In this document: piece by piece, positions 564 to 64,000 of the stretch | Layout of the letters: each line of letters starts with the position of its first letter | Position numbering within the stretch: the first letter of the stretch is position 1 | DNA from: Patescibacteria group bacterium | Lineage (GTDB): Bacteria; Patescibacteriota; UBA1384; JBBRAU01 | Assembly (NCBI GenBank): GCA_038206475.1 | Contig: JBBRAU010000002.1 | Location: forward strand, 13,892 to 77,891 | Direction of reading: 5' to 3' | Length of the DNA stretch: 64,000 bases | The notes under the pieces: generated by a model | Told to the model about the DNA's origin: nothing | The model's input: the letters and a program-made list of their open reading frames with translations, nothing else | The model's database searches: none | Program-made: the position numbers and the translations under genes

Positions 564-1727
564 TTACGATTCGATGCCGGACGTACCGGCAGTGCTCAGT
601 GCGCTAATGGTAATTGCTGTATCAGGGTGGACAACTTCCACCCAAATTGTGCCACGGACGAGTGGAATTTCGTTGCCACCTTGATCATAAAAACGAGTGC
701 GGCCAGTCCCCTTTCTTTTCCAGGTTCCAGCCGTAGCCTGTCCGTTCTCTATAACCACGGCTTTGTTGCTGCCGGTGGTTGTGTATTGCCAAATTTGTTT
801 ATCGCCAGCCTCGGTCAGGGATTTACGTTCGACTGTTTGCAAAATAATCGTTTTGGCCACAATCTGCTGATGCGTCTCCGCGTCGAGGTGTGGCTTGCCG
901 GCCATTGTCCGGCTGTAGCTACTCGTGGCCATGTCATATGTCCAGTTCACAGCAAAGCCTGGTGTTGAAAAATCAATTTTGACCGTTTGGCTGGCTGGAC
1001 GATCCGTCTCGGCGACGTCATCACGAAATAGCCACGGGGCAAAGTTGGCGCCGGTCGGCCAGCGATTAATAACGGTCGCCACCTTCCAAAGCTTATCGGT
1101 CGACGAATACATCGTATGCTCAAGCGCCACTTTTTTATTACTATCGCGGGCGTAAGCCGCCGCGCCAACCGTAAACTGGTTGAGGTCAAAGACATGGGTG
1201 GCGGCAATTTGAGCCAGGGCCGGCTCGCTACCACCAACATGAGCATAAAAGGCACCGAGCTCCGTCGCCCAGTCAATATAGTACGTGCGGGCGCTGCGCA
1301 CCGGCCCTACACGCTGCAGCTGGCGCGGATCGGCGTAGACAGCCATAAAGCGAGTAATGCCGCCTTCAGCGATGGCCTCGTACACTAGGTCGGCCGCGGC
1401 CAAGCCAGACTGCGGCCGGGCATCGGGGTGGTTCTCGATCATGACCGCCAGTGGGTGTAGCTTAGTGGCGTCAGATGCCACCAGTTTGCCGGTGAGGATA
1501 TCAGGCTCTAGCTGCGGCGAAACAACGGGGTTGGGCTGCAGCACCGCTGCGAACGGAGCCGTCAAACAGACCCTGTCGCAGTGCAAACGCTTGCCCCAGA
1601 CAATAACGGTGTACACCAAGGCGGCCAGAATAATACAGATGATAGCGCCGCCAATCAGGCGCCGGGCATGTGGTTTTGGCGCGGCTGTTGGCAGCTGGTC
1701 ACCCCCAGAGCTGATGAAAGACTTCAC
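564..1727 (-). CDS. DUF3048-like (YerB-like) protein with N-terminal membrane anchor
   Basis: 387-aa ORF; hydrophobic N-terminal segment; recalled DUF3048-like blocks (VMIENHPDARPQSGL, ITRFMAVY). Confidence 0.55.
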   Translation of the reverse strand: MKSFISSGGDQLPTAAPKPHARRLIGGAIICIILAALVYTVIVWGKRLHCDRVCLTAPFAAVLQPNPVVSPQLEPDILTGKLVASDATKLHPLAVMIENHPDARPQSGLAAADLVYEAIAEGGITRFMAVYADPRQLQRVGPVRSARTYYIDWATELGAFYAHVGGSEPALAQIAATHVFDLNQFTVGAAAYARDSNKKVALEHTMYSSTDKLWKVATVINRWPTGANFAPWLFRDDVAETDRPASQTVKIDFSTPGFAVNWTYDMATSSYSRTMAGKPHLDAETHQQIVAKTIILQTVERKSLTEAGDKQIWQYTTTGSNKAVVIENGQATAGTWKRKGTGRTRFYDQGGNEIPLVRGTIWVEVVHPDTAITISALSTAGTSGIES

Positions 1728-1766
1728 TCCTTCAGTATGACCGACATTGCACCCTTGGCCAACTGA

Positions 1767-5672: not shown

Positions 5673-6236
5673 TTATTTGGTTACCCCGTTGCATGTTTTG
5701 GCATTCCAAAAGCCCAGCCCGGCGGCTTTGGCCGCCGTTTCTACCTGTCTGAAGGTGCCTTGCGCTTGATATGGCTTATCATAGGTGTACTCGTGGGCAA
5801 AGCCTTCGGCAATCAGTTTTTGATTAATGAGCGTACCGTCAGCCAAAAACACATAGCGCAGCAACCGGCCATACTTATCTTGGTCGTCTTGGCTGGTATC
5901 TGGCAACAGTTTGACGCGCTGACCGTCAAGCAGCTTATGTGCCTCCGTCGACGCCTGCGGCCCAAAGCACTGTACCGGTTTGCGTGGGTCTACCACTTCC
6001 GGCGTATCGATGCCAATCAGGCGCACCCGGTCTGTCTTCAGGCGCGAGGTTTTTACGTCAATGGTGTCGCCGTCAATTACTTTGGCCACGGGTACTAACC
6101 CGTCGTTTGGTTGGCTGCTGACATTGTCGGCGGTCGTGTGCCAATCGAAGTGGCTGATCTCACTTACGGCCACTACAACAAAGGCGACGATCGCAATAAG
6201 CAGCAGCCAACCGACAATTACTCTCCGTTCAGGCAT
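5673..6236 (-). CDS. Thermonuclease (staphylococcal-nuclease-like), membrane anchored
   Basis: DGDTIDV...RVRLIGIDTPE SNase motifs; start taken at internal ATG 6236 giving an N-terminal signal anchor (longer ORF runs to 6404). Confidence 0.75.
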   Translation of the reverse strand: MPERRVIVGWLLLIAIVAFVVVAVSEISHFDWHTTADNVSSQPNDGLVPVAKVIDGDTIDVKTSRLKTDRVRLIGIDTPEVVDPRKPVQCFGPQASTEAHKLLDGQRVKLLPDTSQDDQDKYGRLLRYVFLADGTLINQKLIAEGFAHEYTYDKPYQAQGTFRQVETAAKAAGLGFWNAKTCNGVTK

Positions 6237-6318
6237 ACGTTTAGTGTAGCCGAGCCGGCTGTACACGTCATTTTTACCAAGTTGCTCACGTTTGTCACAC
6301 TTATAATAAACACTTGAA

Positions 6319-7002
6319 ATGAAAGGGATCACGCTGCATGGCACCCCGGAGGGCTGGCGGAAAATGCCAGTCAAAACCGGGACCGTACGGCTCCACAGAA
6401 CCACGCCGGGGCGGCTGTGGTTTCAAACGCTCATCGTGGAGGAGGGCAGGGAGCATGTGTTCCTGCCCGATGGCTCCGCCGTGGTCAAGGGTCTCGGTGG
6501 GGTCACCACCCTGATACCGGGCCCTAAATACGGCGGCGGCGAAGTCACCCCCGTGACGACGCCGGCCGGGATGGTAGTGGTGAACACCACGACCACCCCG
6601 GGGTCAGCTCGGACACTTCTAAACGCCCGCGGGTGGGGCGGGTATATTCTTGACCCGCTCACCGCAACGGCAACGCCATTCGGCTGCCCCCCAATCCGGT
6701 GGGCAGCCGAACTGCGACCGGACCAGTTCATAGTTGTCGACCCAGGCGGCTACTACGCCTACCGAGTCGACGTGACCTTCCCCATCAACCCCCGCCGCGT
6801 CCAGGGTGACGTTGGCGGCAACGGCAGGTTCGACCTGTCGGATGCCCTGTTGGCGTTGTACTTGCTTCACGGGGATATCAACGCCAACCCCGGCCAGAAA
6901 CAGGCCGCGGACGTCGATGGCGACGGCTTCGTAACGCTGGAAGACGTCATCCGGATGCTGTACGCAGCAACCGGAACGCCATTCAGCTCCCCGCTCTGGT
7001 AA
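6319..7002 (+). CDS. Protein with C-terminal dockerin-like (paired EF-hand Ca-binding) domain
   Basis: DVGGNGRFDLSDALLALYLL and ADVDGDGFVTLEDVIRMLY repeats; by eye the gene is markedly more GC-rich than its neighbours, with CGG/GGG/CCG codons. Confidence 0.55.
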   Translation: MKGITLHGTPEGWRKMPVKTGTVRLHRTTPGRLWFQTLIVEEGREHVFLPDGSAVVKGLGGVTTLIPGPKYGGGEVTPVTTPAGMVVVNTTTTPGSARTLLNARGWGGYILDPLTATATPFGCPPIRWAAELRPDQFIVVDPGGYYAYRVDVTFPINPRRVQGDVGGNGRFDLSDALLALYLLHGDINANPGQKQAADVDGDGFVTLEDVIRMLYAATGTPFSSPLW

Positions 7003-7066: not shown

Positions 7067-7165
7067 GCTCTACGTTCAGATTGACTATCATTTGTGCAGT
7101 CGCGATTTTGCGCCCGCCTTCTGCAACAGCGCGTTGCACTGGCATTTATGCTAAGCTCTAGGCAA

Positions 7166-9562
7166 ATGACTGGCCCGGAACGACGCGAAATAGAGCAAAA
7201 ATGGCAACAGCGGTGGCAAGACGACCGCATTTTTGCAGTGGACTTGGCCAAGGCTGACCACAAATTCTACCATCTCAACATGTTCCCCTACCCCAGCGGC
7301 AATTTGCACGTGGGCCACTGGTACAACTTTGCTGTCTCGGACATTGCGGCTCGCGCCGTTCGCCGTCAAGACAAAACCGTCTTCAACCCGATGGGCTTTG
7401 ACGCCTTCGGCTTGCCGGCTGAAAACGCCGCCATCAAGCACGGCCTCGACCCAGCCGCTTGGACGGAGCAAAACATCAGCTCGATGCGTACGCAGCTGCA
7501 AAGTACCGGCGCCAGCTTTGATTGGTCAAAAGAAATTGCCACCTGCCGGCCGGATTATTACCGCTGGACACAGTGGATGTTCCTGTTTATGTACCAGCAC
7601 GGCCTGACCGAGAAGCGCGAGGCGCCGGTTAACTGGTGTCCGAAAGATCAAACCATTTTAGCCAATGAGCAGGTTGTCGGTGGCAAGTGTGAACGTTGCG
7701 GCAGCGAAGTAATTTTAAAGAAATTGCCGCAGTGGGTATTTAAGATTACTGACTACGCCGAGCGACTGCTTAAAGATGTTGACGCACTGGACTGGCCAGA
7801 AAAAACCAAAACCATGCAGCGCAACTGGATCGGCCGCTCTGAAGGGGCTTATGTTGAGTTCAGCTTGGCTGACACGCCTGATACGCGCTTAAAAGTTTTT
7901 ACCACACGCGTGGATACGCTCTACGGCGTGACTTACTTGGTGGTCGCTCCAGAACACAGCCTCACCCCCAAACTGACGGCTGAGGGCCACACAGAGGCAG
8001 TTGAAGCCTACGTAGAGTCGGCTAGCCATAAATCTGAGCTGGAGCGGACGGAACTGCAGAAGCAGAAAACCGGCGTTTTCTCTGGCAGTTACGCTATCCA
8101 TCCGTTGACCGCTGAGAAACTGCCTATTTGGATTGCCGACTATGTGCTGGCTACGGTTGGCACCGGCGCCGTGATGGGCGTGCCGGCCCACGATGAACGT
8201 GACTGGGAGTTCGCCAAAAAACACGATCTGCTGATTGTGGCTGTTATCCATCCTGCAACGGGCGAGGTCAATGCCAATCAAGTCGTTACCGAACCGGGAA
8301 AGTTAATTAATTCGGCTGAGTTTTCTGGCCAGACAAGCGAAGAGGCCAAACAAACGATTGTCGCTAAACTCAAAGAGCTGGGCCTAGGTCAGCCGGCCGT
8401 GACATACCGTCTACGCGATTGGGTGGTGTCACGCCAGCGCTACTGGGGCGCCCCTATCCCGATTGTTTACTGCGGCACATGCGACACGGTGCCGGTACCG
8501 GCCGCCGAGCTGCCGGTGCTGCTGCCGACCGATGTTGATTTTAAGCCAACCGGCGAATCGCCACTAGCTCGCTCCGAAAGCTTTAGCCACACCACCTGTC
8601 CGCGGTGCGGCAATGCGGCGAGGCGCGAAACCGACACGCTTGATACCTTTGTTGACTCCAGTTGGTACTTCTTCCGCTTTTTGTCGCCCGACAATACAGC
8701 GGCATTTACCGATCAGGCGTTGGCCAAAAAATGGCTGCCGGTTGACCTGTACATCGGCGGCGCTGAGCACTCGGTGCTGCACCTGCTGTACGCCCGCTTC
8801 TTCACGAAAGTGCTGTATGACCACGACTTGTCTCCCGTCAGCGAGCCGTTCCAAAAACTGCGCCACCAAGGTACAATTCTCGGGCCGGATAACCAAAAAA
8901 TGTCCAAATCAAAAGGCAATGTAGTTGATCCGGATGCGTTGGTCGCCGAGCACGGCGCCGATGTTGTGCGCAGCTACCTGGCCTTTATGGGCCCATACAA
9001 CCAAGGCGGTCCGTGGCATCAGGGTGGACTTGTGGGCGTTGAACGCTTCTTTAACCGTGTTGAACGCTTAGTCATCGAGTCGGCTGCAGCTAGCAGCGAG
9101 GTCGGTGATAGTGCTGGACGCGAGCGACATAGTGTCATCAAAAAAGTTACGGAGGAAATCGCTGAGCTGCGTTTCAATACAGCGCTGGCGGCTTTAATGG
9201 CATGGGCAAATAATTTGGAGAAGCGCGGCGCCAGCCGCGAAGATCAAGAGGCGCTTACTTCGCTACTCAACCCGTTTGCACCGCATCTGACTGAGGAGCT
9301 TTGGCAGCATTTGGGGCATGAGCCATATTTGGCACTGGCGGCCTGGCCAGAATTTGATAACAGCTTGACGGTTGAAGACCGGGTAATCGTGGTCGTGCAA
9401 ATCAATGGGCGCTTACGCGGCTCATTTGAGACCCAGCGCCAGCAATCGGAAGCCGCATTGATCCGCCAAGCCCGCCAAATAGAGGCTATTCAACACTACT
9501 TGACCGGTGAACCGAAAAAGACCATTGTCGTGCCTGACAAGCTCATCAATTTTGTGATTTAG
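7166..9562 (+). CDS. leuS: Leucyl-tRNA synthetase
   Basis: HVGH-type motif (PYPSGNLHVGHWYNF), KMSKSKGN motif; start chosen at ATG 7166 (ORF track begins at GTG 7094). Confidence 0.95.
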   Translation: MTGPERREIEQKWQQRWQDDRIFAVDLAKADHKFYHLNMFPYPSGNLHVGHWYNFAVSDIAARAVRRQDKTVFNPMGFDAFGLPAENAAIKHGLDPAAWTEQNISSMRTQLQSTGASFDWSKEIATCRPDYYRWTQWMFLFMYQHGLTEKREAPVNWCPKDQTILANEQVVGGKCERCGSEVILKKLPQWVFKITDYAERLLKDVDALDWPEKTKTMQRNWIGRSEGAYVEFSLADTPDTRLKVFTTRVDTLYGVTYLVVAPEHSLTPKLTAEGHTEAVEAYVESASHKSELERTELQKQKTGVFSGSYAIHPLTAEKLPIWIADYVLATVGTGAVMGVPAHDERDWEFAKKHDLLIVAVIHPATGEVNANQVVTEPGKLINSAEFSGQTSEEAKQTIVAKLKELGLGQPAVTYRLRDWVVSRQRYWGAPIPIVYCGTCDTVPVPAAELPVLLPTDVDFKPTGESPLARSESFSHTTCPRCGNAARRETDTLDTFVDSSWYFFRFLSPDNTAAFTDQALAKKWLPVDLYIGGAEHSVLHLLYARFFTKVLYDHDLSPVSEPFQKLRHQGTILGPDNQKMSKSKGNVVDPDALVAEHGADVVRSYLAFMGPYNQGGPWHQGGLVGVERFFNRVERLVIESAAASSEVGDSAGRERHSVIKKVTEEIAELRFNTALAALMAWANNLEKRGASREDQEALTSLLNPFAPHLTEELWQHLGHEPYLALAAWPEFDNSLTVEDRVIVVVQINGRLRGSFETQRQQSEAALIRQARQIEAIQHYLTGEPKKTIVVPDKLINFVI

Positions 9563-9600: not shown

Positions 9601-10047
9601 TTGACTTCCACGCCTAAAATGCGTATGGTGACGGTAATGACTGAGCCTTCCACCTTTCTCGTCTCGGTCCAAACGCTGTGGCAATATGCGGCGGATGAGC
9701 CGGTGCTCTACACATTTGACGGACCAATTACGCTCGACGAACAGCGTACCGTCCACGCCGAAGGCACTGTTAAGCTGACTAAACTGGCCGATGATGAAAT
9801 ATTGGCCGAACTGGCCCTACACGCTCTGACGCCACTGGCTTGCGCCCGCTGTCTGCGTACGTTTGAGCACGAGATGATGCTTGAAGCCAACGAAGTGTTC
9901 AACCGCTTCCCAGAGCCAGAGCAGTTCCCTATCTCGGCACGCTTACAGATTGACCTGGCCGCGCCTATACGCCAATTAATTATCTTAAACGAACCGGGCT
10001 TCCCTTTGTGCCAAGCAGATTGCCCAGGTACAATGGAATTATCCTAG
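9601..10047 (+). CDS. YceD/DUF177-family protein (start uncertain)
   Basis: C-terminal Cys motifs (CARC..., CQADCPG), typical neighbourhood upstream of rpmF. Confidence 0.55.
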   Translation: MTSTPKMRMVTVMTEPSTFLVSVQTLWQYAADEPVLYTFDGPITLDEQRTVHAEGTVKLTKLADDEILAELALHALTPLACARCLRTFEHEMMLEANEVFNRFPEPEQFPISARLQIDLAAPIRQLIILNEPGFPLCQADCPGTMELS

Positions 10048-19079: not shown

Positions 19080-19407
19080 GGCTCTCCCCCTCTACCTGCT
19101 CAAGCAATTCGTCGACCCGGCTAACATGCTCCGCCGAATGGTCTAAGTAAAAATGCAACTCCGGCGCATATTTAAAATCATATTTGTGAAATATTTGCGT
19201 GCTAAAGCGTGGCGCCTCGTTGTGCAGGCGAACCAGCAAATTGTCTGGTGCGGTAGCTAAACTGCGCACAAACACTTTGGCTTGGCGCAAATCAGGCGAG
19301 ACCTCAACCGCCGTTACGGTGAGCGTTGGCCCGGGCAGCACCTCAAACAGCAGCTCCGCAACCGCTCGCCGAAACAATTCGCTGACACGCTCGGTACGCC
19401 TTGACAT
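19072..19407 (-). CDS. rbfA: Ribosome-binding factor A
   Basis: RbfA pattern (R..RV...L.......TVTAVEVSPDLRQAKVFV); start at internal ATG 19407. Confidence 0.7.
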   Translation of the reverse strand: MSRRTERVSELFRRAVAELLFEVLPGPTLTVTAVEVSPDLRQAKVFVRSLATAPDNLLVRLHNEAPRFSTQIFHKYDFKYAPELHFYLDHSAEHVSRVDELLEQVEGESRG

Positions 19408-19501
19408 AGTAGGCCAACTATAGCAGCAATATGCGGGTGTGGGTAGCAGAAGAGGTTTTGGCTTCAACGCACACTGCTACTACAGTACTTTTCAGGATGC
19501 A

Positions 19502-24835: not shown

Positions 24836-25478
24836 TTTCCTTTATAGCTTGCTTAATTCGTTTGCTGACGGCCGGAACTGTGCCGTGGCCAGAAACGGTC
24901 AACAAGCGGCCGCGAGATTGAAAATAACGGCGCAGCGGTCGGCTCGTGCGTGCAAATAGGCGCAACCTAGCGCGGGCAACTTCCGGGGCATCATCGGCTC
25001 GGCGAATCAGTATTGCTTGGTCGTGCTGGCAGCGGCCTGTTTTAAACGACTGTTGGCGCGGATAGTAACTGCGGTGACAGGTCGGACAAATAAGCCTTTT
25101 CTGCAGCCGCTTCAGTGCTTCGGCTTGGGTAATTTTGATGTAAATAGCTGTGGGCAACGGCCGACCAAGTTTGATCAGCAGGTGATCAAGCCACTTGGCC
25201 TGGCTGACTGTGCGCGGCGTGCCGTCAAAAATTAATTTGCGTTTGCGGCCAGCAGCCTCGATGTTGTGCTCCAATGTCGGCAATAGCAGCTCATCGGGAA
25301 TCAGTTTACCCTGAAGCATGGCGTTTGCCGCTTCGTGGCCGGCTTTTGTCGGACTGTTAGCCAATGCCCGCGTTACATCACCGCTGGAAATGACCGCTGC
25401 GCGCCAAGAGCGGCGCAAACGTTCGGCCTGTGTACCCTTACCGCTGCCCTGTGGCCCAAGAAAGATTGTACTCTGCAC
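24807..25478 (-). CDS. adk: Adenylate kinase
   Basis: P-loop LGPQGSGKGTQ; Cys4 lid (CPTC...C..H); GTG start. Confidence 0.9.
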   Translation of the reverse strand: MQSTIFLGPQGSGKGTQAERLRRSWRAAVISSGDVTRALANSPTKAGHEAANAMLQGKLIPDELLLPTLEHNIEAAGRKRKLIFDGTPRTVSQAKWLDHLLIKLGRPLPTAIYIKITQAEALKRLQKRLICPTCHRSYYPRQQSFKTGRCQHDQAILIRRADDAPEVARARLRLFARTSRPLRRYFQSRGRLLTVSGHGTVPAVSKRIKQAIKESDEADKNRR

Positions 25479-25624
25479 AGCCCGAGCCTAGCTTATAGAC
25501 AGCAAAATTGCCACCTCTCCTTGCTTTTTGTCGCTTATATGCTATGCAAAGTGATTCACACCTGGGCAATCATGCCCATTTTTCTCTCAAGTAGAGCGAG
25601 AGAGAAGTTTGCCGTCAGCAAAAC

Positions 25625-38493: not shown

Positions 38494-38522
38494 AGACTAA
38501 CTGATTTTATTGCCTTGGTCAA
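38494..38522 (-). promoter_or_regulatory. Candidate promoter for tuf
   Basis: Minus strand TTGACC - 17 nt - TAGTCT, about 110 nt upstream of the tuf start. Confidence 0.35.
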
Positions 38523-38902: not shown

Positions 38903-38982
38903 TGCAGGCCTCCTTGGCCGCGAAATAAAAGGAACAGAGAGTGACTATTTAATTTATGCATTATTTAGTATACTTTGTCAAT

Positions 38983-39783
38983 ATGAAGTATCTCTGGCCG
39001 GCCGCTATCACCCTATGCCTACTGAGCCTATTTTTGTGGCTCCACACGTGGCAACGACCGGCAAACAGCATTGCAGCCTCACCGCAAGCCTCCAGCACTG
39101 CCTATTCGGCTCCACCGAACCCGCTGGCCAGCCTTTCAGCCTCCCCCGCTCTAGTAGACAGTCACACGCCTACGCGTATACCTAAGACGCGTCCAGCCAG
39201 CGTCAATATCAGCGTGCCATTTACTGTCCAGGCGCCAACTGGCCGTTGGGATGCCTTTCATGAGGAAACCTGTGAAGAAGCGGCGGCGCTGATGGCTGCC
39301 TATTGGCGCGACGCCAAATTGCACCGCAGCCTGGGTGACCCAGCCAAAATCCCCAACGATACGACCGAGACCGCTCTGCGCGCAATTGCCGATTGGGAGA
39401 CGCAAACGTTCGGCTATTGGCAAGATACGACGGCCACCGAAACAGCCGAAATTATAACCGATTATTTTCACCTGCAGGCGTCAGTAGAAACCATTGTCAG
39501 CACTGACACAATTGAACAGGCGCTGGCCGACGGCCATTTGGTACTGCTGCCGACCGCCGGCCGTCTACTAAATAGCCCCTACTACACGGCGCCGGGGCCG
39601 GCTTACCACTTTTTGCTCATCCGCGGTTATACCAACACCGACTTCATTACCAACGACGCCGGCACGAAGTACGGCGCAGGCTACCAATTTCGGAAAAAAA
39701 CCGTTCTGCAGGCCATTCACGACTGGACAGGAGACGCGGAAACCATTACAACTGGTCGTAGCGTCATGATTGTCGTGCAGTAG
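38983..39783 (+). CDS. Peptidase C39-like (YvpB-like) domain protein, N-terminal signal anchor
   Basis: Hydrophobic N-terminus, Ser/Pro/Ala linker, VPFTVQAPTGRWDAFHEETCEEAAALMAAYW resembling C39_2 catalytic Cys region; start ambiguous (38956 or 38983). Confidence 0.55.
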   Translation: MKYLWPAAITLCLLSLFLWLHTWQRPANSIAASPQASSTAYSAPPNPLASLSASPALVDSHTPTRIPKTRPASVNISVPFTVQAPTGRWDAFHEETCEEAAALMAAYWRDAKLHRSLGDPAKIPNDTTETALRAIADWETQTFGYWQDTTATETAEIITDYFHLQASVETIVSTDTIEQALADGHLVLLPTAGRLLNSPYYTAPGPAYHFLLIRGYTNTDFITNDAGTKYGAGYQFRKKTVLQAIHDWTGDAETITTGRSVMIVVQ

Positions 39784-39804
39784 CTTTGGAGCTCGAAAAG
39801 GGGA

Positions 39805-42430: not shown

Positions 42431-42459
42431 AGACTAGCACAAAAAGGCTGTTTCGCCAA
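42431..42459 (-). promoter_or_regulatory. Candidate promoter for fusA
   Basis: Minus strand TTGGCG - 17 nt - TAGTCT (same -10 hexamer as the tuf candidate). Confidence 0.35.
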
Positions 42460-42480: not shown

Positions 42481-42891
42481 TCAAAGAAGGCCGAGGTTTT
42501 GCTTATGACGAATAGAGGCTTTGGTACTGTCGCCGGATTTTCTCGGTCGGAGCGACCGGTATTGTAGGTTTGGCGGCCAATATAGCCTCCACGGGTTTAA
42601 CCTGACAAAAAAACGGAGGCGCATGGCGCCTCCGAAGAGTCGTTTTTGAGATTTACATGACTCGACGATGCACACATCATCGGCATGGTCGAACATCGAC
42701 ACAATGACGAACAAGAGCAGCAGCGGATACGGCTCAACATTCTCGATCAGGCCAGGAGCGCTTGGTAGCGTTATGCTGAAGTTGCCCGCCTGAGTATTGC
42801 CAGTTGACGGCGTTTTGCGCACGATGGGGCCGCTATTTCCTACAGGCAGCACGTCTGAATCAATGTGGATGACGGAGCGATTTTCAGGCAT
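42481..42891 (-). CDS. ORF of doubtful coding status downstream of the STAS gene
   Basis: Only open frame in the region; N-terminal two-thirds has plausible codon usage, but the frame runs through a strong terminator hairpin and a rare-codon W/R/P-rich tail. Confidence 0.2.
   Translation of the reverse strand: MPENRSVIHIDSDVLPVGNSGPIVRKTPSTGNTQAGNFSITLPSAPGLIENVEPYPLLLLFVIVSMFDHADDVCIVESCKSQKRLFGGAMRLRFFVRLNPWRLYWPPNLQYRSLRPRKSGDSTKASIRHKQNLGLL
42607..42634 (-). terminator. Strong rho-independent terminator
   Basis: 9-bp stem CGGAGGCGC/GCGCCTCCG with 3-nt loop, followed on the minus strand by U7. Confidence 0.65.
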
Positions 42892-43276
42892 TGGCTTTCT
42901 CCTGTTGCACGAAGGGAGCGAGAAACTGGACGGCTTCTTGCTCGGTTGCAAAAATAGTGAAGGTTTTCGTCAAGCCGGCGGCGTCTAGTACCCGTTGCGG
43001 TTGATCCGTGATCTGCAGCAACACGAGCTGACCCCCGTACCCGCGAATGCATCTGAGGGACCAGACAAGCCCTCCCAGCCCCGCCACGTCCATGTACGTA
43101 ACTAAGTGCATATTGAGGCCAATATAACGCCGGCCCAACAACTTCATTTTGACAACCATCTCGAGAAGACCAGGCGAGCTGTATGTGTCGAGTTCACCCT
43201 GAAGATCCAAAATGGTTACGCCGTCTACTTCTCGCTGCTCAATATCAAACTCCACCGACCTTCTCCTTATTGTCAC
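42884..43276 (-). CDS. STAS-domain protein (anti-sigma-factor antagonist-like)
   Basis: ILDLQGELD...LVTYMDVAGLGGLV...GGQLVLLQITDQPQRVLDAAGLTKTFTIFATEQEAVQFL; GTG start. Confidence 0.7.
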   Translation of the reverse strand: MTIRRRSVEFDIEQREVDGVTILDLQGELDTYSSPGLLEMVVKMKLLGRRYIGLNMHLVTYMDVAGLGGLVWSLRCIRGYGGQLVLLQITDQPQRVLDAAGLTKTFTIFATEQEAVQFLAPFVQQEKANA

Positions 43277-43847: not shown

Positions 43848-44267
43848 TTACTCTTTCGCTCGTTTGGCGCCGTACAGGCTACGACCCTGCTTGCGGTCTT
43901 TCACGCCCTGCAAATCAAGTTTGCCGCGAACAATACGATAGCGCATGCCTGGTAAATCCTTAACCCGGCCGCCTTGAATCATGACCACGGAGTGCTCTTG
44001 CAACGAGTGGCCTTCCCCCCGAATATAGGCGTTAACTTCCATCCCATTAGTCAGGCGAACGCGAGCAAATTTACGCAGCGCCGAGTTTGGCTTTTTTGGT
44101 GTGACGGTACCAACTTTAATGCAAACACCACGCTTTTGCGGCGCACCACCGTCCAGCTTAACTGGCCGATTTTTTAAGAAGTTAAAGGAGCGCTTGAGGG
44201 CAAGCGTTTTGTGACGTTCAATTTTGGGTGTGCGCGGTTTGCGCAGCAGCTGGTTAATAGTTGGCAT
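43848..44267 (-). CDS. rpsL: 30S ribosomal protein S12
   Basis: [12 protein letters not shown]...[10 protein letters not shown]; start at internal ATG 44267. Confidence 0.9.
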
Positions 44268-44356
44268 AGTTCTACCGAAGAATAGCATAAATGAGTGACT
44301 TGAGCAAGCGTCGATATAAAGCCAATGCTCCCCTGAGAAGCGCCACTCTTGGGTAG

Positions 44357-52416: not shown

Positions 52417-53403
52417 CTACAGATGACTCACAATTTGGCGGACGAGCTCTGGTATTCCAGCGTGAGTAGCGGCGGAGATGACCGCTGGCGGCTGACCGGC
52501 GGTTTGCGCGATCGCCGCCGTCTTTTCGACTAATTCTACCGGCGCAACCAACTCACTCTTGGTTACCACGGCAATCTCTGGCCGGTCCGCCAGAGCCTGA
52601 TCAAAAGCAGCCAGCTCTTGACGGATGGTTCGGTAGGCCTCAGCCATATCTTCGTTCTCAACCGAGATTAAATGAATAAGTAGGCCGGTCCGCCGAACAT
52701 GTTTCAAGAAAGCGTCGCCTAGCCCTTTGCCTTCGGAGGCACCGGCGATCAAGCCCGGGATATCGGCGACGACAAAGGTTTTGTCATCAATCTCAACTAC
52801 GCCGAGCTCAGGCTCAAGCGTCGTAAAGGGGTAGGCGGCAATTTTTGGTTTGGCTCGGCTGATAACCGACAGCAGGGTGGATTTGCCGGCGTTCGGCAGA
52901 CCGATCAAACCGACATCAGCAATCAGCTGCCACTCCAGCTCTAGTTTGCGTTGCTCACCCGGTTGACCTGGCTTGGCCCAATCTGGCGCCTGTTTAATAG
53001 AAGTGGCAAAATGTTGGTTGCCCCAACCACCGTTACCGCCACGGGCCACACGCACAGTTTGGCCGACCGTTTGTAAGTCGGCCAGTTGTTGTTTGCGACC
53101 ATCCGGCAACAGTTCGCGCACAACGGTGCCGACTGGTACAGCCAGCACTAAATCTTCGCCACGTTTACCGCTTTTTTGTTGGCGACCACCCTGCTCGCCC
53201 TCAGGAGCGGCGAAGTCATGTTTGCGGCGAAAGAGGTCTAAACCGTGCGGTCCAGCCTCAGCGCGGACCAAAACATCACCGCCGCGGCCACCGTCACCGC
53301 CGTCTGGTCCGCCGTTTGGCACATACTTTTCACGCCGAAAAGAGACGTGCCCGTCACCGCCGCGGCCGCCTTGAACGTGGATTGTCGCTTCATCAATCAG
53401 CAT
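52417..53403 (-). CDS. obg: GTPase Obg
   Basis: Gly-rich Obg fold N-terminus, GLPNAGKST G1 motif; start at internal ATG 53403. Confidence 0.9.
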   Translation of the reverse strand: MLIDEATIHVQGGRGGDGHVSFRREKYVPNGGPDGGDGGRGGDVLVRAEAGPHGLDLFRRKHDFAAPEGEQGGRQQKSGKRGEDLVLAVPVGTVVRELLPDGRKQQLADLQTVGQTVRVARGGNGGWGNQHFATSIKQAPDWAKPGQPGEQRKLELEWQLIADVGLIGLPNAGKSTLLSVISRAKPKIAAYPFTTLEPELGVVEIDDKTFVVADIPGLIAGASEGKGLGDAFLKHVRRTGLLIHLISVENEDMAEAYRTIRQELAAFDQALADRPEIAVVTKSELVAPVELVEKTAAIAQTAGQPPAVISAATHAGIPELVRQIVSHL

Positions 53404-53827
53404 GCGGACGAGTATACACCAGACGGAGCGGGATATGAAGGGTGCGCCGGCGTTTTGCCTGCAACAAGCCAAGCGGTACAACGACCGTACCGTGGTCGAC
53501 GCTAGCACGAACCACATGGTGGCCGGCCACCTCAATACGGTCCAGCTCAACCTCAAAACCGGCCGGCTGCGGCAGTCTCAGCTGGATATTTTCAAGCACC
53601 AGCGGCAAGTGATTAGTAACAGTAATTTTCGCCACACCAACTTCACCGACAGCAAGCGGCTCGGGCGGCAGAACTTGTTCAATTTGCAGCAAGCGTGATG
53701 AAATTTGGTAGCCCACCGGGTTTTGGGCCGTCTCGGCTGGCAGGGCGGTTCGCCGTTGCCAGCACCAAAATGAGACTGCTGTTGCGCCGAGCTCCAGCAG
53801 CAGGGCGATAGCTACAAGCCCGGTCAT
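53393..53827 (-). CDS. Hypothetical membrane-anchored protein
   Basis: N-terminal TM segment; overlaps downstream obg start by 11 nt and the upstream gene by 4 nt. Confidence 0.4.
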   Translation of the reverse strand: MTGLVAIALLLELGATAVSFWCWQRRTALPAETAQNPVGYQISSRLLQIEQVLPPEPLAVGEVGVAKITVTNHLPLVLENIQLRLPQPAGFEVELDRIEVAGHHVVRASVDHGTVVVPLGLLQAKRRRTLHIPLRLVYTRPHAD

Positions 53828-54414
53828 GGCTGGGTTGAGCTGGCCTGAGGCGGCGCGGGTGTTGTCACCGTCAACGATGCTGGCTGGTCAATCTTCGAGA
53901 CCACGCCGTCCTGTTTGGTCAGCACTAGACTGTCGACTGGAATTGTCAAGTTAACTGCCGCAGACAGCGGCAGTGTACCAAGTGTCATCTGACCCTCGGG
54001 CAGCAAACTATCCGGCAGCATGACAGTCAACTTACGACTGGCCGCATCATAGTGCAGACCGGGTGTGTCTTCGGCTGCCGAAAAACCGGCAAATGCCGGG
54101 TCGACCGGCAGCGTCAGCTCAACTGACTGCAGTGAGCTGTCTGGTACATCGAGAATGAGCGTGGCGGCATCAGTATGATCTTCGGCTAATGTTAATTTTT
54201 CCGGCAAAAAGAATAGGCTTGGCGTTGAGCTAGCCGTCACAATCGCCGTTGGCTGGTCGGCGTAACTGGCGGCGCCGCGTCCTAGCCACTCGCTGCCGCT
54301 GACACCGAGTACCAAGAGAACCGCAATCAAAAAACCGTAGCGGTGGAACGTCTGACGCAGCCACTGCCAAAAGAGCCCGAGCGGGTGCGCGCGGTGAGGA
54401 TGGCGCTTCTGCAT
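53824..54414 (-). CDS. Hypothetical membrane-anchored protein
   Basis: Basic N-terminus then TM (GFLIAVLLVLGV) then soluble domain. Confidence 0.45.
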   Translation of the reverse strand: MQKRHPHRAHPLGLFWQWLRQTFHRYGFLIAVLLVLGVSGSEWLGRGAASYADQPTAIVTASSTPSLFFLPEKLTLAEDHTDAATLILDVPDSSLQSVELTLPVDPAFAGFSAAEDTPGLHYDAASRKLTVMLPDSLLPEGQMTLGTLPLSAAVNLTIPVDSLVLTKQDGVVSKIDQPASLTVTTPAPPQASSTQP

Positions 54415-54476
54415 GATGGCTTGAGTATATCAAAAAAATGGCATCATGAGACGCCATTTTTGACTATATATAGACG

Positions 54477-58308: not shown

Positions 58309-60201
58309 TTACAGTTCGCGCTTTAGTTCTTCGGTACGGAACAGCTCCAAGACGTCACCTTCGGCGACTTCAACGTGGCCGGGCAGGCCAACGCCGGCTT
58401 CAACTCCAGCGGAAATTTCTGGCACTTCAGTCTTCTCACGGCGGAGCGATTCAACTGTCCCTTCACCGACAATTTCTTTACCGCGAAAAACATGGACCGG
58501 CTGGCCTTTGACCAGTTTGCCCTCTTCCACCCGCACACCAAGAATTTTCTCACGCTTATCGGCCCGGAAGACGCGCAGCACTTTGGCCCGGCCAACAACA
58601 ACCTCGACGGTTTCGGTTGGCAGCAAGCCCGACAGCGCCCGGCGCAGATCATCCTGCAGTTCATAAATAACGTCGTAGAGTGAAACAGGCACCTGGCTTT
58701 GCTCCGCCAGGCGGCGCACCGGTGCCGGCAGCGCCACGCGGAAGCCAATCAGAAGGCTGCCAGTGGTTTGGGCCAGCAGAATATCAGATTCCGTGATGTC
58801 ACCAACGCCGGAACGGACGGTTTTGATGGCTACTTCACTGGTGCCAATATCTTCAAGCAGCTGGGCAATGGCGTCAATTGAGCCCTGCACATCAGCTTTT
58901 AAAACAATCGACAGCTCGCGTAGTCGGCCCAGGCCAACCCGCTCGGCCAAGGCTGACATGCCTTTGGTTTTCAGTTGGGCAACCGATTTGACCACGTCTT
59001 GCTGTTTGGCAAAACTGGCAGCCGCCTCACGGGCCTCTTTCTCGCTGGAGAAGACAGCCACCGACTGGCCGGCCTTCGGCACACCAGACAGACCAGCTAC
59101 GATTACCGGTGTGCCCGGCGAGGCGGCTTCAAGCCGCTCACCGCGTTCATTCTCTAGGAAGCGTACGCGGCCCCAGAATGAGCCAATGGAGATCGATTCA
59201 CCCGGATGCATGGTGCCATTTTGAATCAAGATGGTCGCCACCGCGCCACGGCCAGACTGCTTGTTGGCCTCAATAACGACTCCGACGGCGGTAGCCGCCG
59301 GATCAGCTCGCAGATTTTTCATATCAGCCACAACCATGACGGTGTCGAGCAGCGTCTCGATGCCTTCTCGACTGATTGATGAAATTGGCACAATCGGCGT
59401 CTCACCGCCCCAACCTTCGACCAATACGCCGGCTTCAGCCAGGCCGGCCTTGACCATGTCCGGATTAGCCTCTGGTTTGTCCATCTTGGTGATCGCCACA
59501 ACCAGCGGCACGTTGGCCGCTTTGGCGTGGTCAATGACCTCTTTGGTTTGCGGCTTGACACCGTCGTCGGCCGCGACAACCAAAATAATAATGTCGGTAA
59601 TGGTCGCGCCGTGGGCGCGCATGGTGGCAAAGGCGGCGTGACCCGGTGTATCAAGGAAGGTGATTTTGCGCTGATCGCCGTTTGGGCTCTGCCAGTCAAC
59701 TTGGTAGGCGCCGATGTGTTGGGTAATACCGCCAGACTCGCCAGCCACCACATTGGTTTGGCGCACTGCGTCGAGCAGAGTAGTTTTGCCATGATCAACA
59801 TGGCCCATAACAGCGACAACCGGCGGCCGCGGCCGGAGGTCAGCTTCATTAACCAGCTCAGCGGTATGCTCAGCGGCTTTGGCGGCGGTCGGCATTACCT
59901 CCGCCCCTAAGTCGTCAGCTACAATAGCGGCGGTTTCAAAATCGATCGCTTGGTTGATAGTGGCTAGTACACCGTAGCGCATGAGCGCGCCAATAACTGC
60001 GGTTGGCGGTTGGTCTAATTTGTCGGCATAGTCCCGGACACTAACCACAGGCGGCAACTCGACGCGCTTTTTAACAACCACAGCCGCCACCTGCACCGGC
60101 TGGTTGGCCAAAAAAGCCGCCCGCTCAACTGACTGGCGTACTTCGGCTTTGGCCTCCTTTTTAGAAGGCTTGCGTTTTTTAGAGCGACTATGTTGTGCCA
60201 T
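58309..60201 (-). CDS. infB: Translation initiation factor IF-2
   Basis: [13 protein letters not shown]1 motif and IF-2 C-terminal domains; start at ATG 60201 (track starts TTG 60207). Confidence 0.95.
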   Translation of the reverse strand: MAQHSRSKKRKPSKKEAKAEVRQSVERAAFLANQPVQVAAVVVKKRVELPPVVSVRDYADKLDQPPTAVIGALMRYGVLATINQAIDFETAAIVADDLGAEVMPTAAKAAEHTAELVNEADLRPRPPVVAVMGHVDHGKTTLLDAVRQTNVVAGESGGITQHIGAYQVDWQSPNGDQRKITFLDTPGHAAFATMRAHGATITDIIILVVAADDGVKPQTKEVIDHAKAANVPLVVAITKMDKPEANPDMVKAGLAEAGVLVEGWGGETPIVPISSISREGIETLLDTVMVVADMKNLRADPAATAVGVVIEANKQSGRGAVATILIQNGTMHPGESISIGSFWGRVRFLENERGERLEAASPGTPVIVAGLSGVPKAGQSVAVFSSEKEAREAAASFAKQQDVVKSVAQLKTKGMSALAERVGLGRLRELSIVLKADVQGSIDAIAQLLEDIGTSEVAIKTVRSGVGDITESDILLAQTTGSLLIGFRVALPAPVRRLAEQSQVPVSLYDVIYELQDDLRRALSGLLPTETVEVVVGRAKVLRVFRADKREKILGVRVEEGKLVKGQPVHVFRGKEIVGEGTVESLRREKTEVPEISAGVEAGVGLPGHVEVAEGDVLELFRTEELKREL

Positions 60202-60393
60202 ATGCAATTACACTACTACAAATACGCTTCTTTTTCAATTGACTGACCGCGTAAAGTTGGGCAGATTCGCAAACGAGGTAGATTAAGTGCTGTCTTGACA
60301 AACCTGCCGACCTGGTAAAATAATGGCCTAAATGGGGTAGGGTGGTTTTGTACTTTCTGTGACACTCTCCCCGGCTCGTGCACGAGGAGGTGC

Positions 60394-60766: not shown

Positions 60767-63430
60767 CTACTCTTCAGAGACGTTTTGTTTATACTTGTGA
60801 ACCGTAATGGCCGGGGTTGCTTTAGCGGCTTCTGCAGCTGGTTTTTTGGTTGCCAGAGCAGCCTTTTTACCTGCTGGCGCTTTAACAGTAGAAATAGCCG
60901 GTTTGGTAGCAGAGGCTTTGGTCGACTCAACCGGTATAGGTGTTTCGATTATTTCCTCTTCAATGAGAGCAACTGAGGCCACTTTATCACCGCTCTTCAA
61001 GCGCATAATGGTCACGCCTTGCGTGTCACGGCCCAGCCGCTTAATCGATTTCAGCGGAATGCGCAGCATTTGGCCGCCGTCAGAGATGAGTAGCAAATCG
61101 GACGTTTCGTTGTGCACCAGCTCCATACCAATAATTTGACCGGTTTTAGCTGTCACATTGGCCACTTTAATACCGATGCCGCCGCGGCCTTGCTCGCTAA
61201 AGTGGTCAAGTTTGGTCCGCTTGCCAAAGCCGTTTTCCAGCACAATCAAAGCATCGGTTTGCGCTTTTTCTTCCGTGCCCACCACGTCCATACTCATGAC
61301 GCGGTCAGTTGGGCGCAACTTCATGCCTCGCACGCCGGCGGCTGAGCGGCCAAGCGGACGGGCGTCTTGCTCGTTGAACAAAATGGCCTGGCCGCGGGCG
61401 GAAACCATAAAAACTTGATCTTTGCCGTGCGAGGTTTTAACCCACTTCAGTTCGTCACCGGTTTGCAGCCGAATGGCAATAATGCCGGACTTGCGCACGT
61501 TCTTATAGGCTTCAATCTCGGTTTTTTTAATGACGCCCTGCTCGGTGGCCATAATAAAGTACTTGAGCTTATCGCGACTACCCTTTTTGAGGGTAATCAT
61601 GGCAGTCACCTTTTCATCTGGGGCAATTTGGACAATGTTGACCAACGCTTGACCTTTTGCCTGGCGTGAGGCCATCGGCAGCTCGTACACCTTGGTTTGG
61701 AACAATCGACCGCGGTTGGTAAAGAACAAAACATCGTCATGGGTGCGGGCGGTCAGCAGCTCGCTCACCATGTCTTCCTCTTTGGTCTGCATGCCGACAA
61801 TGCCTTTACCACCGCGGCCCTGCGCCCGAAAGGTGTCAACCGGCAAACGCTTAATGTAGTTCGATTTAGTCAGAGTGATAAGCGTCTCTTCATCCGGAAT
61901 TAAATCTTCAGCCGAGAATTTACCCAGGCCTTCCTGATGAATTTCGGTTCTACGCGCGTCGCCAAATTTGGCTTTGATGGCCAAAAACTCCTCTTTCATG
62001 ATGGCGTGAATGCGACCTGGGTCAGCCAAAATAGCTTTGTACTCCGCAATGCTTACCAGCATTTCGGCCAATTCATCCTCAATCCGCTGCCGTTCAAGAG
62101 CGGCCAAGGCGGCCAGGCGCATTTCCAAGATAGCGCTGGCCTGAATTTCGGACAGTTTAAACTGAGTAATTAAGTTAGTACGGGCGACTTCACGGTTGGC
62201 GGAGGCACGGATGGTCGAGATGACGGCGTCAATATGGTCAAGAGCAATCTTTAAGCCCTGCAAAACATGGGCGCGTTCTTCAGCTTTTTTGAGCAGATAC
62301 TCGGTGCGCCGACGGACCACTTCAAAGCGGAATTCGAGGAACAGCCGCATCAACTCTTTGAGATTCAAAATCCGCGGCTCTAAGTCCTTGGTCAAGGCCA
62401 GCATGTTGACGTAAAAAGCGCTCTGCAGCTGCGTCAGCTCATACAGCTGGTTCAGTATTTTGGTTGGGTAGGCCGTAGCTTTCAACTCAACGACCACCCG
62501 AATGCCTTTGCGGTCAGATTCGTCTCGCAGGTCAGCAATGCCTTCAATTCGTTTCTCTTTGACCAGATCAGCAATTTTTTCAACCAGCGTCGCTTTATTA
62601 ACCGCAAACGGAATTTCGCTAATGATAATATGCGAACCACGCTTACCTTCTTCGATAATTGCGCGTCCGCGGACAACAATCTTTCCGCGTCCAGTGGCAT
62701 AAGCGGTGCGAATATCTTCGGTATTATATATCAGGCCAGCCGTCGGGAAATCCGGCCCCTTCACAAATTGGAGAAGCTCATCAACGTCAGCTTCCGGGTT
62801 ATCGACTAAGTGGTTGAGGCCGTCACACAACTCCGTTAAATTGTGGGGCGGAATGTTGGTGGCCATGCCAACCGCAATGCCAACTGAGCCGTTCATTAAC
62901 AGCTGCGGTACTTTGGAGGGCAGTACTCGCGGCTCTTGGCGCGTGGAGTCATAGTTAGGAATCCAGTCGACCGTCTCTTTCTCTAAATCTTCAAGCATCT
63001 CCTCGGCAATCGCCGTTAAGCGTGCTTCGGTGTACCGCATGGCTGCCGCTTCATCGCCATCGATGCTGCCGAAATTGCCTTGGCCGTCTACCAGCGGGTA
63101 GCGCATGGCGAACGGTTGGGCCATGTGCACCAGGGTTGGGTAGATAACTTGTTCACCGTGTGGGTGGTAATTACCCGATGTGTCGCCGGCAATTTTAGCG
63201 CATTTTCGGTGCTTGGATCGATGGCTTAAATTGAGGTCACGCATGGCAACTAAAATACGGCGCTGTGATGGCTTTAAACCATCACGTAAATCGGGCAGCG
63301 CCCGGGCAACAATAACCGACATGGCGTAGTCCAGATAGGAGCGCGACAATTCCTCGGTAACACTCATGACCTCAACTTGGCCGATATCAAGGCCTGGGTC
63401 AGTCTCGTGGCGCGAAGGTTTTTTTGGCAT
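60767..63430 (-). CDS. gyrA: DNA gyrase subunit A
   Basis: SYLDYAMSVIVARALPDLRDGLKP, active-site region, GyrA-box-like QGRGGKG in the C-terminal domain. Confidence 0.9.
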   Translation of the reverse strand: MPKKPSRHETDPGLDIGQVEVMSVTEELSRSYLDYAMSVIVARALPDLRDGLKPSQRRILVAMRDLNLSHRSKHRKCAKIAGDTSGNYHPHGEQVIYPTLVHMAQPFAMRYPLVDGQGNFGSIDGDEAAAMRYTEARLTAIAEEMLEDLEKETVDWIPNYDSTRQEPRVLPSKVPQLLMNGSVGIAVGMATNIPPHNLTELCDGLNHLVDNPEADVDELLQFVKGPDFPTAGLIYNTEDIRTAYATGRGKIVVRGRAIIEEGKRGSHIIISEIPFAVNKATLVEKIADLVKEKRIEGIADLRDESDRKGIRVVVELKATAYPTKILNQLYELTQLQSAFYVNMLALTKDLEPRILNLKELMRLFLEFRFEVVRRRTEYLLKKAEERAHVLQGLKIALDHIDAVISTIRASANREVARTNLITQFKLSEIQASAILEMRLAALAALERQRIEDELAEMLVSIAEYKAILADPGRIHAIMKEEFLAIKAKFGDARRTEIHQEGLGKFSAEDLIPDEETLITLTKSNYIKRLPVDTFRAQGRGGKGIVGMQTKEEDMVSELLTARTHDDVLFFTNRGRLFQTKVYELPMASRQAKGQALVNIVQIAPDEKVTAMITLKKGSRDKLKYFIMATEQGVIKKTEIEAYKNVRKSGIIAIRLQTGDELKWVKTSHGKDQVFMVSARGQAILFNEQDARPLGRSAAGVRGMKLRPTDRVMSMDVVGTEEKAQTDALIVLENGFGKRTKLDHFSEQGRGGIGIKVANVTAKTGQIIGMELVHNETSDLLLISDGGQMLRIPLKSIKRLGRDTQGVTIMRLKSGDKVASVALIEEEIIETPIPVESTKASATKPAISTVKAPAGKKAALATKKPAAEAAKATPAITVHKYKQNVSEE

Positions 63431-63436
63431 AGACCT

Positions 63437-63465
63437 ATTCTAGCACAGCCCGCGCTCAGAGCCAA
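63437..63465 (-). promoter_or_regulatory. Candidate gyrA promoter positioned for a leaderless transcript
   Basis: Minus strand TTGGCT - 17 nt - TAGAAT, with only 6 nt between the -10 hexamer and the gyrA ATG. Confidence 0.4.
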
Positions 63466-63633
63466 TTGACAGAGTACGTCTTTTGGCTCACTTTAGGCAC
63501 TTCTTCGCTGCTCTGCCTGCAGAAGGGACTGCTTAACCATGCACTTGCACCTAAGCATCTGCAAGACAATCGTCCTTGGTCTCTTCATCTGGACTATTGT
63601 CTGATTCTCGGCCTACAACAAGTCAGCTCTGCC

Positions 63634-63837
63634 ATGAATCACTTCCTAGATTTACCGGAGGTACTAATCCTCGCTGCTATCCTCTGGGGCGCTATGCTCT
63701 TTTTGCTCGCTTGGTGTGTTTGGGAGCGAGCTATTGCATCGCGTTCAATCCTCCGCGGCGCTAGGAGCTGGTCTCTCATGCTGCTCCCTTCGGCCGGACT
63801 CGCTTACGGCGGCTGGGTTGGCCTCCTTTACCATTGA
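63634..63837 (+). CDS. Small hydrophobic ORF (67 aa), doubtful
   Basis: Membrane-like composition; no convincing SD; a 23-codon ORF (63859-63930) and a terminator follow. Confidence 0.2.
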   Translation: MNHFLDLPEVLILAAILWGAMLFLLAWCVWERAIASRSILRGARSWSLMLLPSAGLAYGGWVGLLYH

Positions 63838-63932
63838 GGAGTGAGCTGGACGATCGTCATGACGATTGTGATGGCGATCGGGCTCTTCCTGCCTATCTCG
63901 CTTCGCGCCTACCGTTTCGAACAGTTCTAATC

Positions 63933-63962
63933 AAAAACCCGCCGAACCTGGCGGGTTTTTTA
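63933..63962. terminator. Bidirectional hairpin terminator
   Basis: CCCGCC-GAACCT-GGCGGG flanked by AAAAA and TTTTT. Confidence 0.55.
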
Positions 63963-64000
63963 TGGTTTCGGTTGAGCTAAAAATGGAGACTCAATATTTC

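Follow-up and report, generated by a model that had tools for sequence, protein, structure and literature searches.

The gyrA gene of the 64-kb stretch of Patescibacteria DNA analysed here (the window) is likely transcribed as a leaderless mRNA from an extended −10 promoter placed against its start codon, and it likely belongs to a genome-wide pattern at the first genes of transcription units; the transcription start site (TSS) and the mode of ribosome recruitment are both inferred. The promoter, TTGGCT-17-TGcTAGAAT, would set the start of transcription on, or one to two bases from, the A of the ATG. The resulting gyrA mRNA would have neither a 5′ leader nor a Shine-Dalgarno (SD) sequence, and its translation would begin by direct recognition of the 5′-terminal AUG, through the 70S/fMet-tRNA leaderless pathway described in other bacteria. 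About 40% of the first-in-unit genes carry a −10 box 6–11 nt before their start and no SD, and they would give rise to leaderless or near-leaderless messages. This reading is built on direct observations of the sequence geometry, of six start codons, of the enrichment of the box, of the conservation of the rpsL promoter and of the same positional peak in other Patescibacteria.

A sequence-only reading of the window had placed TTGGCT-17-TAGAAT 6 nt ahead of the gyrA ATG, and these positions were confirmed on the minus strand (63465–63460 for the −35 element, 63442–63437 for the −10 hexamer and 63430–63428 for the ATG). The −35 element TTGGCT (63460..63465) matches TTGACA at four of six positions, the −10 hexamer TAGAAT (63437–63442) is a 5/6 match and the spacer between them is 17 nt. 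Because TGc stands directly ahead of TAGAAT, the −10 is of the extended type (TGcTAGAAT, 63437..63445, minus strand). The site thus has the features asked of an extended −10 sigma-70 promoter, namely TG at −15/−14, A2 and T6 in the −10 and a −35 element at 16–18 nt. The −10 and the ATG are separated by the 6-nt discriminator AGGTCT (63431..63436, minus strand), so that the A of the ATG is the seventh base past the −10, which is the canonical +1 position. Leaderless genes of the genomes called group C, which are discussed below, have a TANNNT box ending about 6–8 nt ahead of the start, and gyrA has such a box. It should be noted that the sigma-70-like match, taken alone, is not beyond chance (one in positions 62800–64000, where 0.7 is expected per 1.2 kb); its placement at the start codon is.

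No functional SD was found at gyrA, where the sole AGG lies 3 nt from the ATG. When the upstream 20 nt were paired with the anti-SD CACCUCCUUU, the best duplex reached −3.9 kcal/mol, compared with a median of −5.9 kcal/mol for operon-internal genes. The gene is the first of its transcription unit, with a divergent upstream neighbour and an intergenic region of about 200 nt. That gyrA transcription would begin at or next to the ATG, as the sequence-only reading had proposed, is therefore supported as a prediction by the validated M1 (see below), the A at the seventh base, the lack of a usable SD and the position of the gene in its unit. If the mRNA indeed has no leader, regulation of gyrA must act at the promoter, for instance if the −10 and discriminator respond to supercoiling, and not in a 5′ UTR.

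The divergent neighbour of gyrA is a set of small hydrophobic plus-strand ORFs that ends at a terminator (63933–63960). A perfect TTGACA on the plus strand (63466–63471) abuts the gyrA −35 element, so that two −35 boxes stand back to back and point in divergent directions; 17 nt past this TTGACA there is a weak CACTTT, followed by the small hydrophobic ORFs and their terminator. An Rfam scan of the window returned two tRNA genes only, with no leader or riboswitch near gyrA. Both encode tRNA-Ala (anticodons CGC and GGC); one is on the plus strand (238–313) and the other on the minus strand (1870–1945), with a DUF3048 gene between them.

The placement seen at gyrA recurs across the window. Seventy gene starts were curated in the 64 kb, 25 of them first-in-unit and 45 operon-internal, and profile alignments fixed the N-terminus where possible. 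A TANNNT box ends 5–11 nt ahead of the start in 11/25 first-in-unit genes, compared with one of the 45 internal genes (Fisher p=1.9e-5). When the set is restricted to starts validated by homology, the box is found in 6/11 first genes and in 1/32 internal genes (p=4.7e-4). Under an earlier classification of the genes, 15 boxes were counted at distances d=5–11, compared with 2.0 expected from d=14–54 of the same upstream regions (Poisson p=5e-9), and shuffling the proximal 30 nt 2000 times never gave as many. The dinucleotide TG precedes the box (TGn) in five of the 11 box genes, against a dinucleotide frequency of 0.069 (p=0.002). Strict sigma-70-like matches number 50 in the window; four of them end 5–11 nt ahead of a curated start, where 0.19 would be expected (p=4.8e-5). 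Spacings in the window range over 6–11 nt with no peak at 6–7, so that several of these genes would have leaders of 1–6 nt. Some starts were picked with the box position known, and those of the C39-like, dockerin-like and yceD-like genes, of infB and of the gene starting at 54414 have no independent validation.

Two further window-wide measurements accompany these counts. Window-only scans with loose criteria for a start-like ATG or GTG, or with any candidate start, were noisy and were replaced by a scan for the 5′-most start; on the window alone, the TANNNT version of that scan gave p=0.06. Folding energies over the first 40 nt showed no difference between the candidate leaderless mRNAs and other genes (p=0.55).

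The most serious competing explanation is that gyrA is expressed from an unrecognised promoter further upstream, either weak or served by another sigma factor, and carries an SD-less leader, TGcTAGAAT being there by chance or in another role. A single sigma-70-like match in 1.2 kb is close to what chance provides (0.7), the two nearest relatives lack the gyrA arrangement, and the window does contain genes with neither an SD nor a nearby −10, such as fusA, whose candidate promoter lies 62 nt upstream. It should, however, be noted that a match has a probability of about 1e-3 of ending exactly where a leaderless message from a given start requires it, and that this coincidence recurs at many first genes. 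Moreover, TGn co-occurs with the box, and no other plausible sigma-70-like −35/−10 pair is seen in the intergenic region of about 200 nt upstream of gyrA. A long leader devoid of an SD would itself require an unusual mode of initiation. We consider an upstream promoter unlikely, and initiation at or beside the 5′-terminal AUG is the reading retained for gyrA.

The organism is not SD-independent, as SDs are usual inside operons and also precede tuf, rpoB, rpsJ and infA. Almost all operon-internal genes have GGAG, AGGA or GAGG 5–9 nt upstream of their start, and 33/45 have a canonical SD, pairing at −5 kcal/mol or below. These motifs indicate that the ribosomes of the organism clearly use SD pairing. 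The first-in-unit genes fall into two classes, having either a strong SD without a nearby −10 or a TANNNT at 5–11 nt with little or no SD. Strong SDs precede tuf, rpoB, rpsJ, infA, a STAS gene and several unknown genes, and the SDs of box-bearing genes are weaker than those of internal genes (Mann-Whitney p=2e-4). A comparison of SD presence with the distance of the −10 hexamer, which the sequence-only reading had put forward as a check, thus gave a clear outcome over the 64-kb window: the box stands at first genes and is anticorrelated with SD strength. The suggestion that frequent leaderless initiation may be a trait of the organism draws support, at the scale of this window, from the difference between first and internal genes (11/25 vs 1/45) and from the conservation of the rpsL promoter.

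The same distribution bears on the proposal that the TANNNT boxes are translation signals, that is, non-SD ribosome binding sites or S1-binding motifs within a leader, of the sort found in Bacteroidota and other group B genomes. The boxes are A/T-rich and are placed where a ribosome binding site would be. In addition, Tsurumaki et al. 2022 (PMC9297842) report less frequent detection of the anti-SD motif in a Parcubacteria subgroup and a shorter bS1 in CPR bacteria. However, a translation signal should precede internal genes as well, and the motif is seen at one of the 45, where canonical SDs are found at 33. As it is missing before 44/45 internal genes, the window genome is not of group B. Furthermore, the boxes are accompanied by TGn and by −35-like hexamers at a 17-nt spacing, and the 6–7 nt peak described below for related loci equals the distance from a −10 to the TSS. 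A role in translation is accordingly very improbable, and the boxes are best regarded as candidate −10 elements.

Two promoters of the window serve as leadered contrasts. The tuf promoter TTGACC-17-TAGTCT (38494..38522, minus strand) lies 109 nt upstream of the ATG at 38384, and the gene has the SD AAGGAG. The fusA promoter TTGGCG-17-TGcTAGTCT (42431..42459, minus strand) lies 62 nt upstream of the ATG at 42368, and fusA has neither an SD nor a nearby −10. The use of TAGTCT as −10 by both genes had been singled out in the sequence-only reading. The hexamers are indeed present, but their sharing is a coincidence between two leadered promoters, since TAGTCT occurs no more often across the window than expected (11 vs 12.1). 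The str operon (rpsL-rpsG-fusA-tuf) is interrupted here, fusA and tuf each having a promoter of their own. rpsG and fusA are separated by a STAS-domain-like gene and an unknown ORF (42481–43276, minus strand), and fusA and tuf by three plus-strand ORFs, one of them for a C39-like peptidase (38956–40206).

Among the candidate leaderless genes, adk shows the exact leaderless geometry with a GTG start (GTGGCA-18-TAGGCT-6-GTG, start 25478; 25476..25514, minus strand); the promoter has no TGn, and residues 1–128 of the protein align with profile positions 1–128, which validates the start. The thermonuclease-like gene (ATGACG-17-TACACT-6-ATG, start 6236; 6234..6271, minus strand) likewise has no TGn, its start being validated by the alignment of residue 12 with position 8 of the NucI profile. 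Three TGn boxes stand before validated starts: leuS (TGcTAAGCT-8-ATG, start 7166; 7149..7168, plus strand), whose residue 7 is profile position 4 and for which ATG 7148 may be an alternative start; rbfA (TGcTATAGT-9-ATG, start 19407; 19405..19425, minus strand), whose residue 1 is profile position 1; and rpsL (TTGCTC-17-TGcTATTCT-11-ATG, start 44267; 44265..44307, minus strand), where residue 1 is again profile position 1. The gyrA box, TGcTAGAAT-6-ATG (start 63430, minus strand), also has TGn, and its start is validated by homologues. A gene for a 196-aa protein with no family match has TGaTATACT-9-ATG (start 54414; 54412..54432, minus strand), again with TGn.

The remaining boxes have no TGn and stand before starts without homology validation. 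The yceD-like gene has TTGACT-17-TATGGT-7-ATG (start 9637; 9601..9639, plus strand), and infB, for which the variable N-terminus of IF-2 leaves the start without validation, has TTGAAA-17-TAGTGT-8-ATG (start 60201; 60199..60238, minus strand). The C39-like gene (Pfam Peptidase_C39_2) has TATACT-8-ATG at the second ATG of its ORF (start 38983; 38969..38985, plus strand), and the dockerin-like gene (Pfam Dockerin_1) has TATAAT-11-ATG (start 6319; 6302..6321, plus strand), with an alternative start at 6364 preceded by GGAGGG 10 nt upstream. Both of these genes probably belong to the leaderless-type set. The hexamers first read close to the starts of rpsL (TATTCT) and infB (TAGTGT) were recovered, at 11 and 8 nt, respectively, and so was the 8-nt spacing of the C39-like TATACT. 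That of 11 nt for the dockerin-like TATAAT also holds, but a fully leaderless message does not follow from it; for this gene, as for rpsL, 11 nt imply a predicted leader of 3–6 nt rather than of zero.

Further cases lie at the margin of the set. The DUF3048 gene is an additional candidate, with TTGGCC-17-CATACT-6-GTG (start 1727; 1725..1762, minus strand), in which the −10 is not TANNNT. At obg, TTCATA-17-TATACT-7-ATG (start 53403; 53401..53439, minus strand) lies inside an upstream ORF of 144 aa (53393–53827, minus strand) that overlaps the obg start by 11 nt. Because of this overlap obg was rejected as a candidate first gene; the sequence is possibly an internal promoter of the leaderless type. 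Two other genes were dropped as SD-less first genes: for gpmI, which had a box at 12 nt, the probable start is GTG 3713 behind AGGTGG, and nusB starts 2 nt after rpmF. The latter gene (L32, MAMPKKRMSQTR...; 10593–10838, plus strand) is small and absent from the list of ORFs of 100 aa, and the unit reads yceD-like / membrane protein / rpmF / nusB / rnc.

The start codon of gyrA itself deserves attention, as the argument depends on it. The CDS (887 aa; 60767..63430, minus strand; NCBIfam GyrA equivalog) is opened by M1 at 63430. The frame is closed four codons upstream of the ATG by the TAG of the −10, which is in frame with gyrA. This leaves M1 and M22 as the two possible starts, since no GTG or TTG occurs in frame between them. 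A search of 5.8 billion proteins provided the relatives for comparison, namely P0001, an identical protein of 887 aa (NCBI set), and P0002 and P0003, with 72% and 68% identity, respectively. P0002 and P0003 begin MPRKRVEQDENPGLEIGKVEVR and MPRKKPQSGENLDYSRIGNVEVR, compared with MPKKPSRHETDPGLDIGQVEVM for the GyrA of the window. Both start with MPRK, share IG.VEV ahead of position 22 and carry R at position 22, the N-terminus common to them and to the window protein being MP(K/R)K..IG.VEV. In the nearest homologues the conserved stretches are MP[KR]K and NPGLEIG.VEV, so that M1-P2 and residues 13–21 are conserved and M22 is not; an alignment of six sequences shows no variation at M1, I16 and G17, and the relatives have R or Q at position 22. 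Residues 1–21 are thus conserved as protein, and with R or Q at position 22 of the relatives it follows that they are coding and that M1 is the gyrA start. A mis-called start, with M22 (ATG 63367) translated behind a GAGG from a 63-nt leader, can hardly be entertained: the GAGG lies just upstream of this ATG and alignments to the NCBIfam GyrA profiles start at residues 19–22, but the GAGG is only 2 nt from the ATG, residues 1–21 are conserved in the nearest homologues (I16 and G17 in all six sequences) and these have R or Q where M22 would be.

The relatives of the window GyrA and RpoC found in genome and metagenome collections are Patescibacteria/CPR (Saccharibacteria, Paceibacterota, Berkelbacteria and others), with identities of at most 53–63%. 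The G+C content of the window is 52–57%. The start of rplO 14 nt before the end of rpsE (27370–27383) leaves no room for a uL30 gene, and the window fits in this respect the absence of uL30 reported as a signature of CPR/Patescibacteria ribosomes (Tsurumaki et al. 2022, PMC9297842).

At gyrA, the two nearest relatives (loci L081 and L082) do not share the arrangement of a promoter beside the ATG. The upstream region of gyrA in L082, the 72% relative, reads ...ttttaaaggaattATG, with a possible AAGGA and no −10. In L081, the 68% relative, gyrA is operon-internal and starts 2 nt after gyrB, which is the first gene of its operon and has TGgTAATAT-8-ATG. Upstream of gyrA in 35 more distant loci, mostly from Patescibacteria, no conserved box was found at a fixed distance; these regions are AT-rich, with hexamers at 0–17 nt. 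Consequently, gyrA itself gives no comparative support. As regards other features of these loci, inteins are present in the GyrB of L081 (L081 1396–7259) and in P0002, the GyrA of L082 (PF14890), and there is none in the GyrA of the window. Repeated TTATTAGTC/TTATAAGTC units stand just upstream of gyrA in two Patescibacteria loci (L022, ~2950–2997; L058, ~2945–2991). A metallo-beta-lactamase-like gene (MVINYFGNGCFRLQSG...) is conserved upstream of gyrA in L004, L006, L008, L014, L040 and L073 (~2050–2130; at 262 in L040), and in these six Patescibacteria genomes TGnTAAAAT lies 7–10 nt before its ATG.

Comparative support comes from rpsL, whose start is fixed by the N-terminus MPT(I/V)NQL. The promoter beside the ATG is kept in three loci related by S12 and RpoC, which represent two distinct sequences: TTGCTC-17-TGcTAATAT-9-ATG in L084 and L128, and TTGCTA-17-TGcTAGGAT-9-ATG in L083. 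The strict −35/−10 criterion misses such rpsL promoters (−35 TTGCTC, 3/6), which were judged by eye and by TGn instead. In L105, L110, L111 and L101, −35/−10 pairs end 6–9 nt from the rpsL ATG, and in a third group of loci the promoter lies about 40–49 nt upstream.

A scan that makes no use of annotation extended the comparison to whole loci, the taxonomy of the JGI loci being assigned from RpoC similarity only. It looks for TGNTANNNT and then, at a distance d, for the 5′-most in-frame ATG or GTG of an ORF of at least 80 codons. Over 80 RpoC-related loci, 15 and 13 occurrences were obtained at d=6 and d=7, compared with 2.1 per offset (p=6e-11). The peak is also present in the 29 loci titled Patescibacteria (p=4.6e-6), and 37 control loci of Desulfobacterota and Clostridia, taken from the search that had supplied the related loci, gave no peak (p=0.82). 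Judged by their N-termini, the genes behind the peak at d=6–7 include rpsP (six loci), mreB, obg, uppP, a UvrD-type helicase gene and a phosphomannomutase gene. An rpsP example is TTGATT-N14-TGgTAGAAT-6-ATG, followed by MLKIRLQR; in the metagenome contigs L132, L135, L148, L149, L150 and L151, a near-consensus TTGAy-N14-TGnTAnnAT ends 6–7 nt before the ATG of this gene (S16, MLKIRLQR...). The obg gene of L098 has TGgTATATT-7-ATG.

These data raise the question of how far the pattern extends. We put at about even the chances that leaderless or near-leaderless initiation is widespread, and possibly ancestral, in Patescibacteria/CPR, where it would serve core genes (gyrA/gyrB, rpsL, rpsP, obg, mreB, adk, infB) beside the SD-led translation of operon-internal genes. 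Our literature search found no report linking leaderless mRNAs to Patescibacteria/CPR; closest to it came the work on reduced ribosomes, with its less frequent anti-SD motif in a Parcubacteria subgroup (PMC9297842), and a compilation of TSSs that includes TM7x (PMC12641261). If this view is correct, a major bacterial radiation with reduced ribosomes joins the leaderless-rich clades, with a bearing on the annotation of gene starts and on the design of expression tools for Patescibacteria/CPR. Gene-start calling in metagenome-assembled genomes would then need a leaderless model, failing which the N-termini of the thermonuclease gene, rbfA, rpsL and leuS are easily extended or misplaced. Cassettes of the form TTGnnn-17-TGnTAnnnT-6/7-ATG could be used as promoters in genetic tools for cultivable Saccharibacteria, and gyrA, adk, rpsL, rpsP and obg would provide a gene set on which to test SD-less initiation by reduced ribosomes.

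Several known systems may be compared with this pattern. Extended −10 (TGn) sigma-70 promoters are common in Firmicutes and known in E. coli, where the TG compensates for a weak −35. The architecture of the TGn promoters of the window (gyrA, rpsL, rbfA, leuS, fusA and the 54414 gene) is as known from these cases, and only their closeness to the start codon is distinctive. Leaderless mRNAs of E. coli and its phages, such as those of lambda cI and Tn1721 tetR, are rare exceptions in an SD-dominated genome. They resemble the messages predicted here in beginning with the A of the AUG and in relying on this 5′-terminal AUG, not on an SD, for translation. In contrast with these exceptions, the pattern of the window covers a large share of the units, including those of the housekeeping genes gyrA, adk, rpsL, infB and leuS. 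In archaeal genomes of group D (Haloferax, Sulfolobus), many first genes also have no 5′ UTR and internal genes keep an SD, but the promoter there is a TATA/BRE about 26 nt upstream, whereas a bacterial −10 at about 6–11 nt and a −35 at a 17-nt spacing are found here (PMC6028130).

The closest parallel is with group C. In these genomes, a Pribnow box lies 6–8 nt from the first gene in 25–50% of the operons and SDs are used elsewhere (Lomsadze et al., PMC6028130); the group is typical of Actinobacteria and Deinococcus-Thermus (PMC6028130). In one of its members, Deinococcus deserti, leaderless mRNAs are defined by a UTR under 6 nt, and the leaders of 3–6 nt predicted for rpsL and the dockerin-like gene still fall within that definition (PMC4007540). 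With Mycobacterium tuberculosis, Streptomyces, Corynebacterium and D. deserti, the window shares TANNNT boxes 6–8 or about 10 nt before the starts of first genes, the lack of an SD at the box genes, the presence of SDs at internal and remaining first genes, and the use of both ATG and GTG starts. It differs from them in its host, a member of the Patescibacteria/CPR with a small genome and without uL30, in the many boxes that have TGn, in a broader spacing (6–11 nt) and in being a prediction from sequence. In its sequence features, the pattern of the window is that of GeneMarkS-2 group C, i.e., a known kind of leaderless initiation predicted in another lineage.
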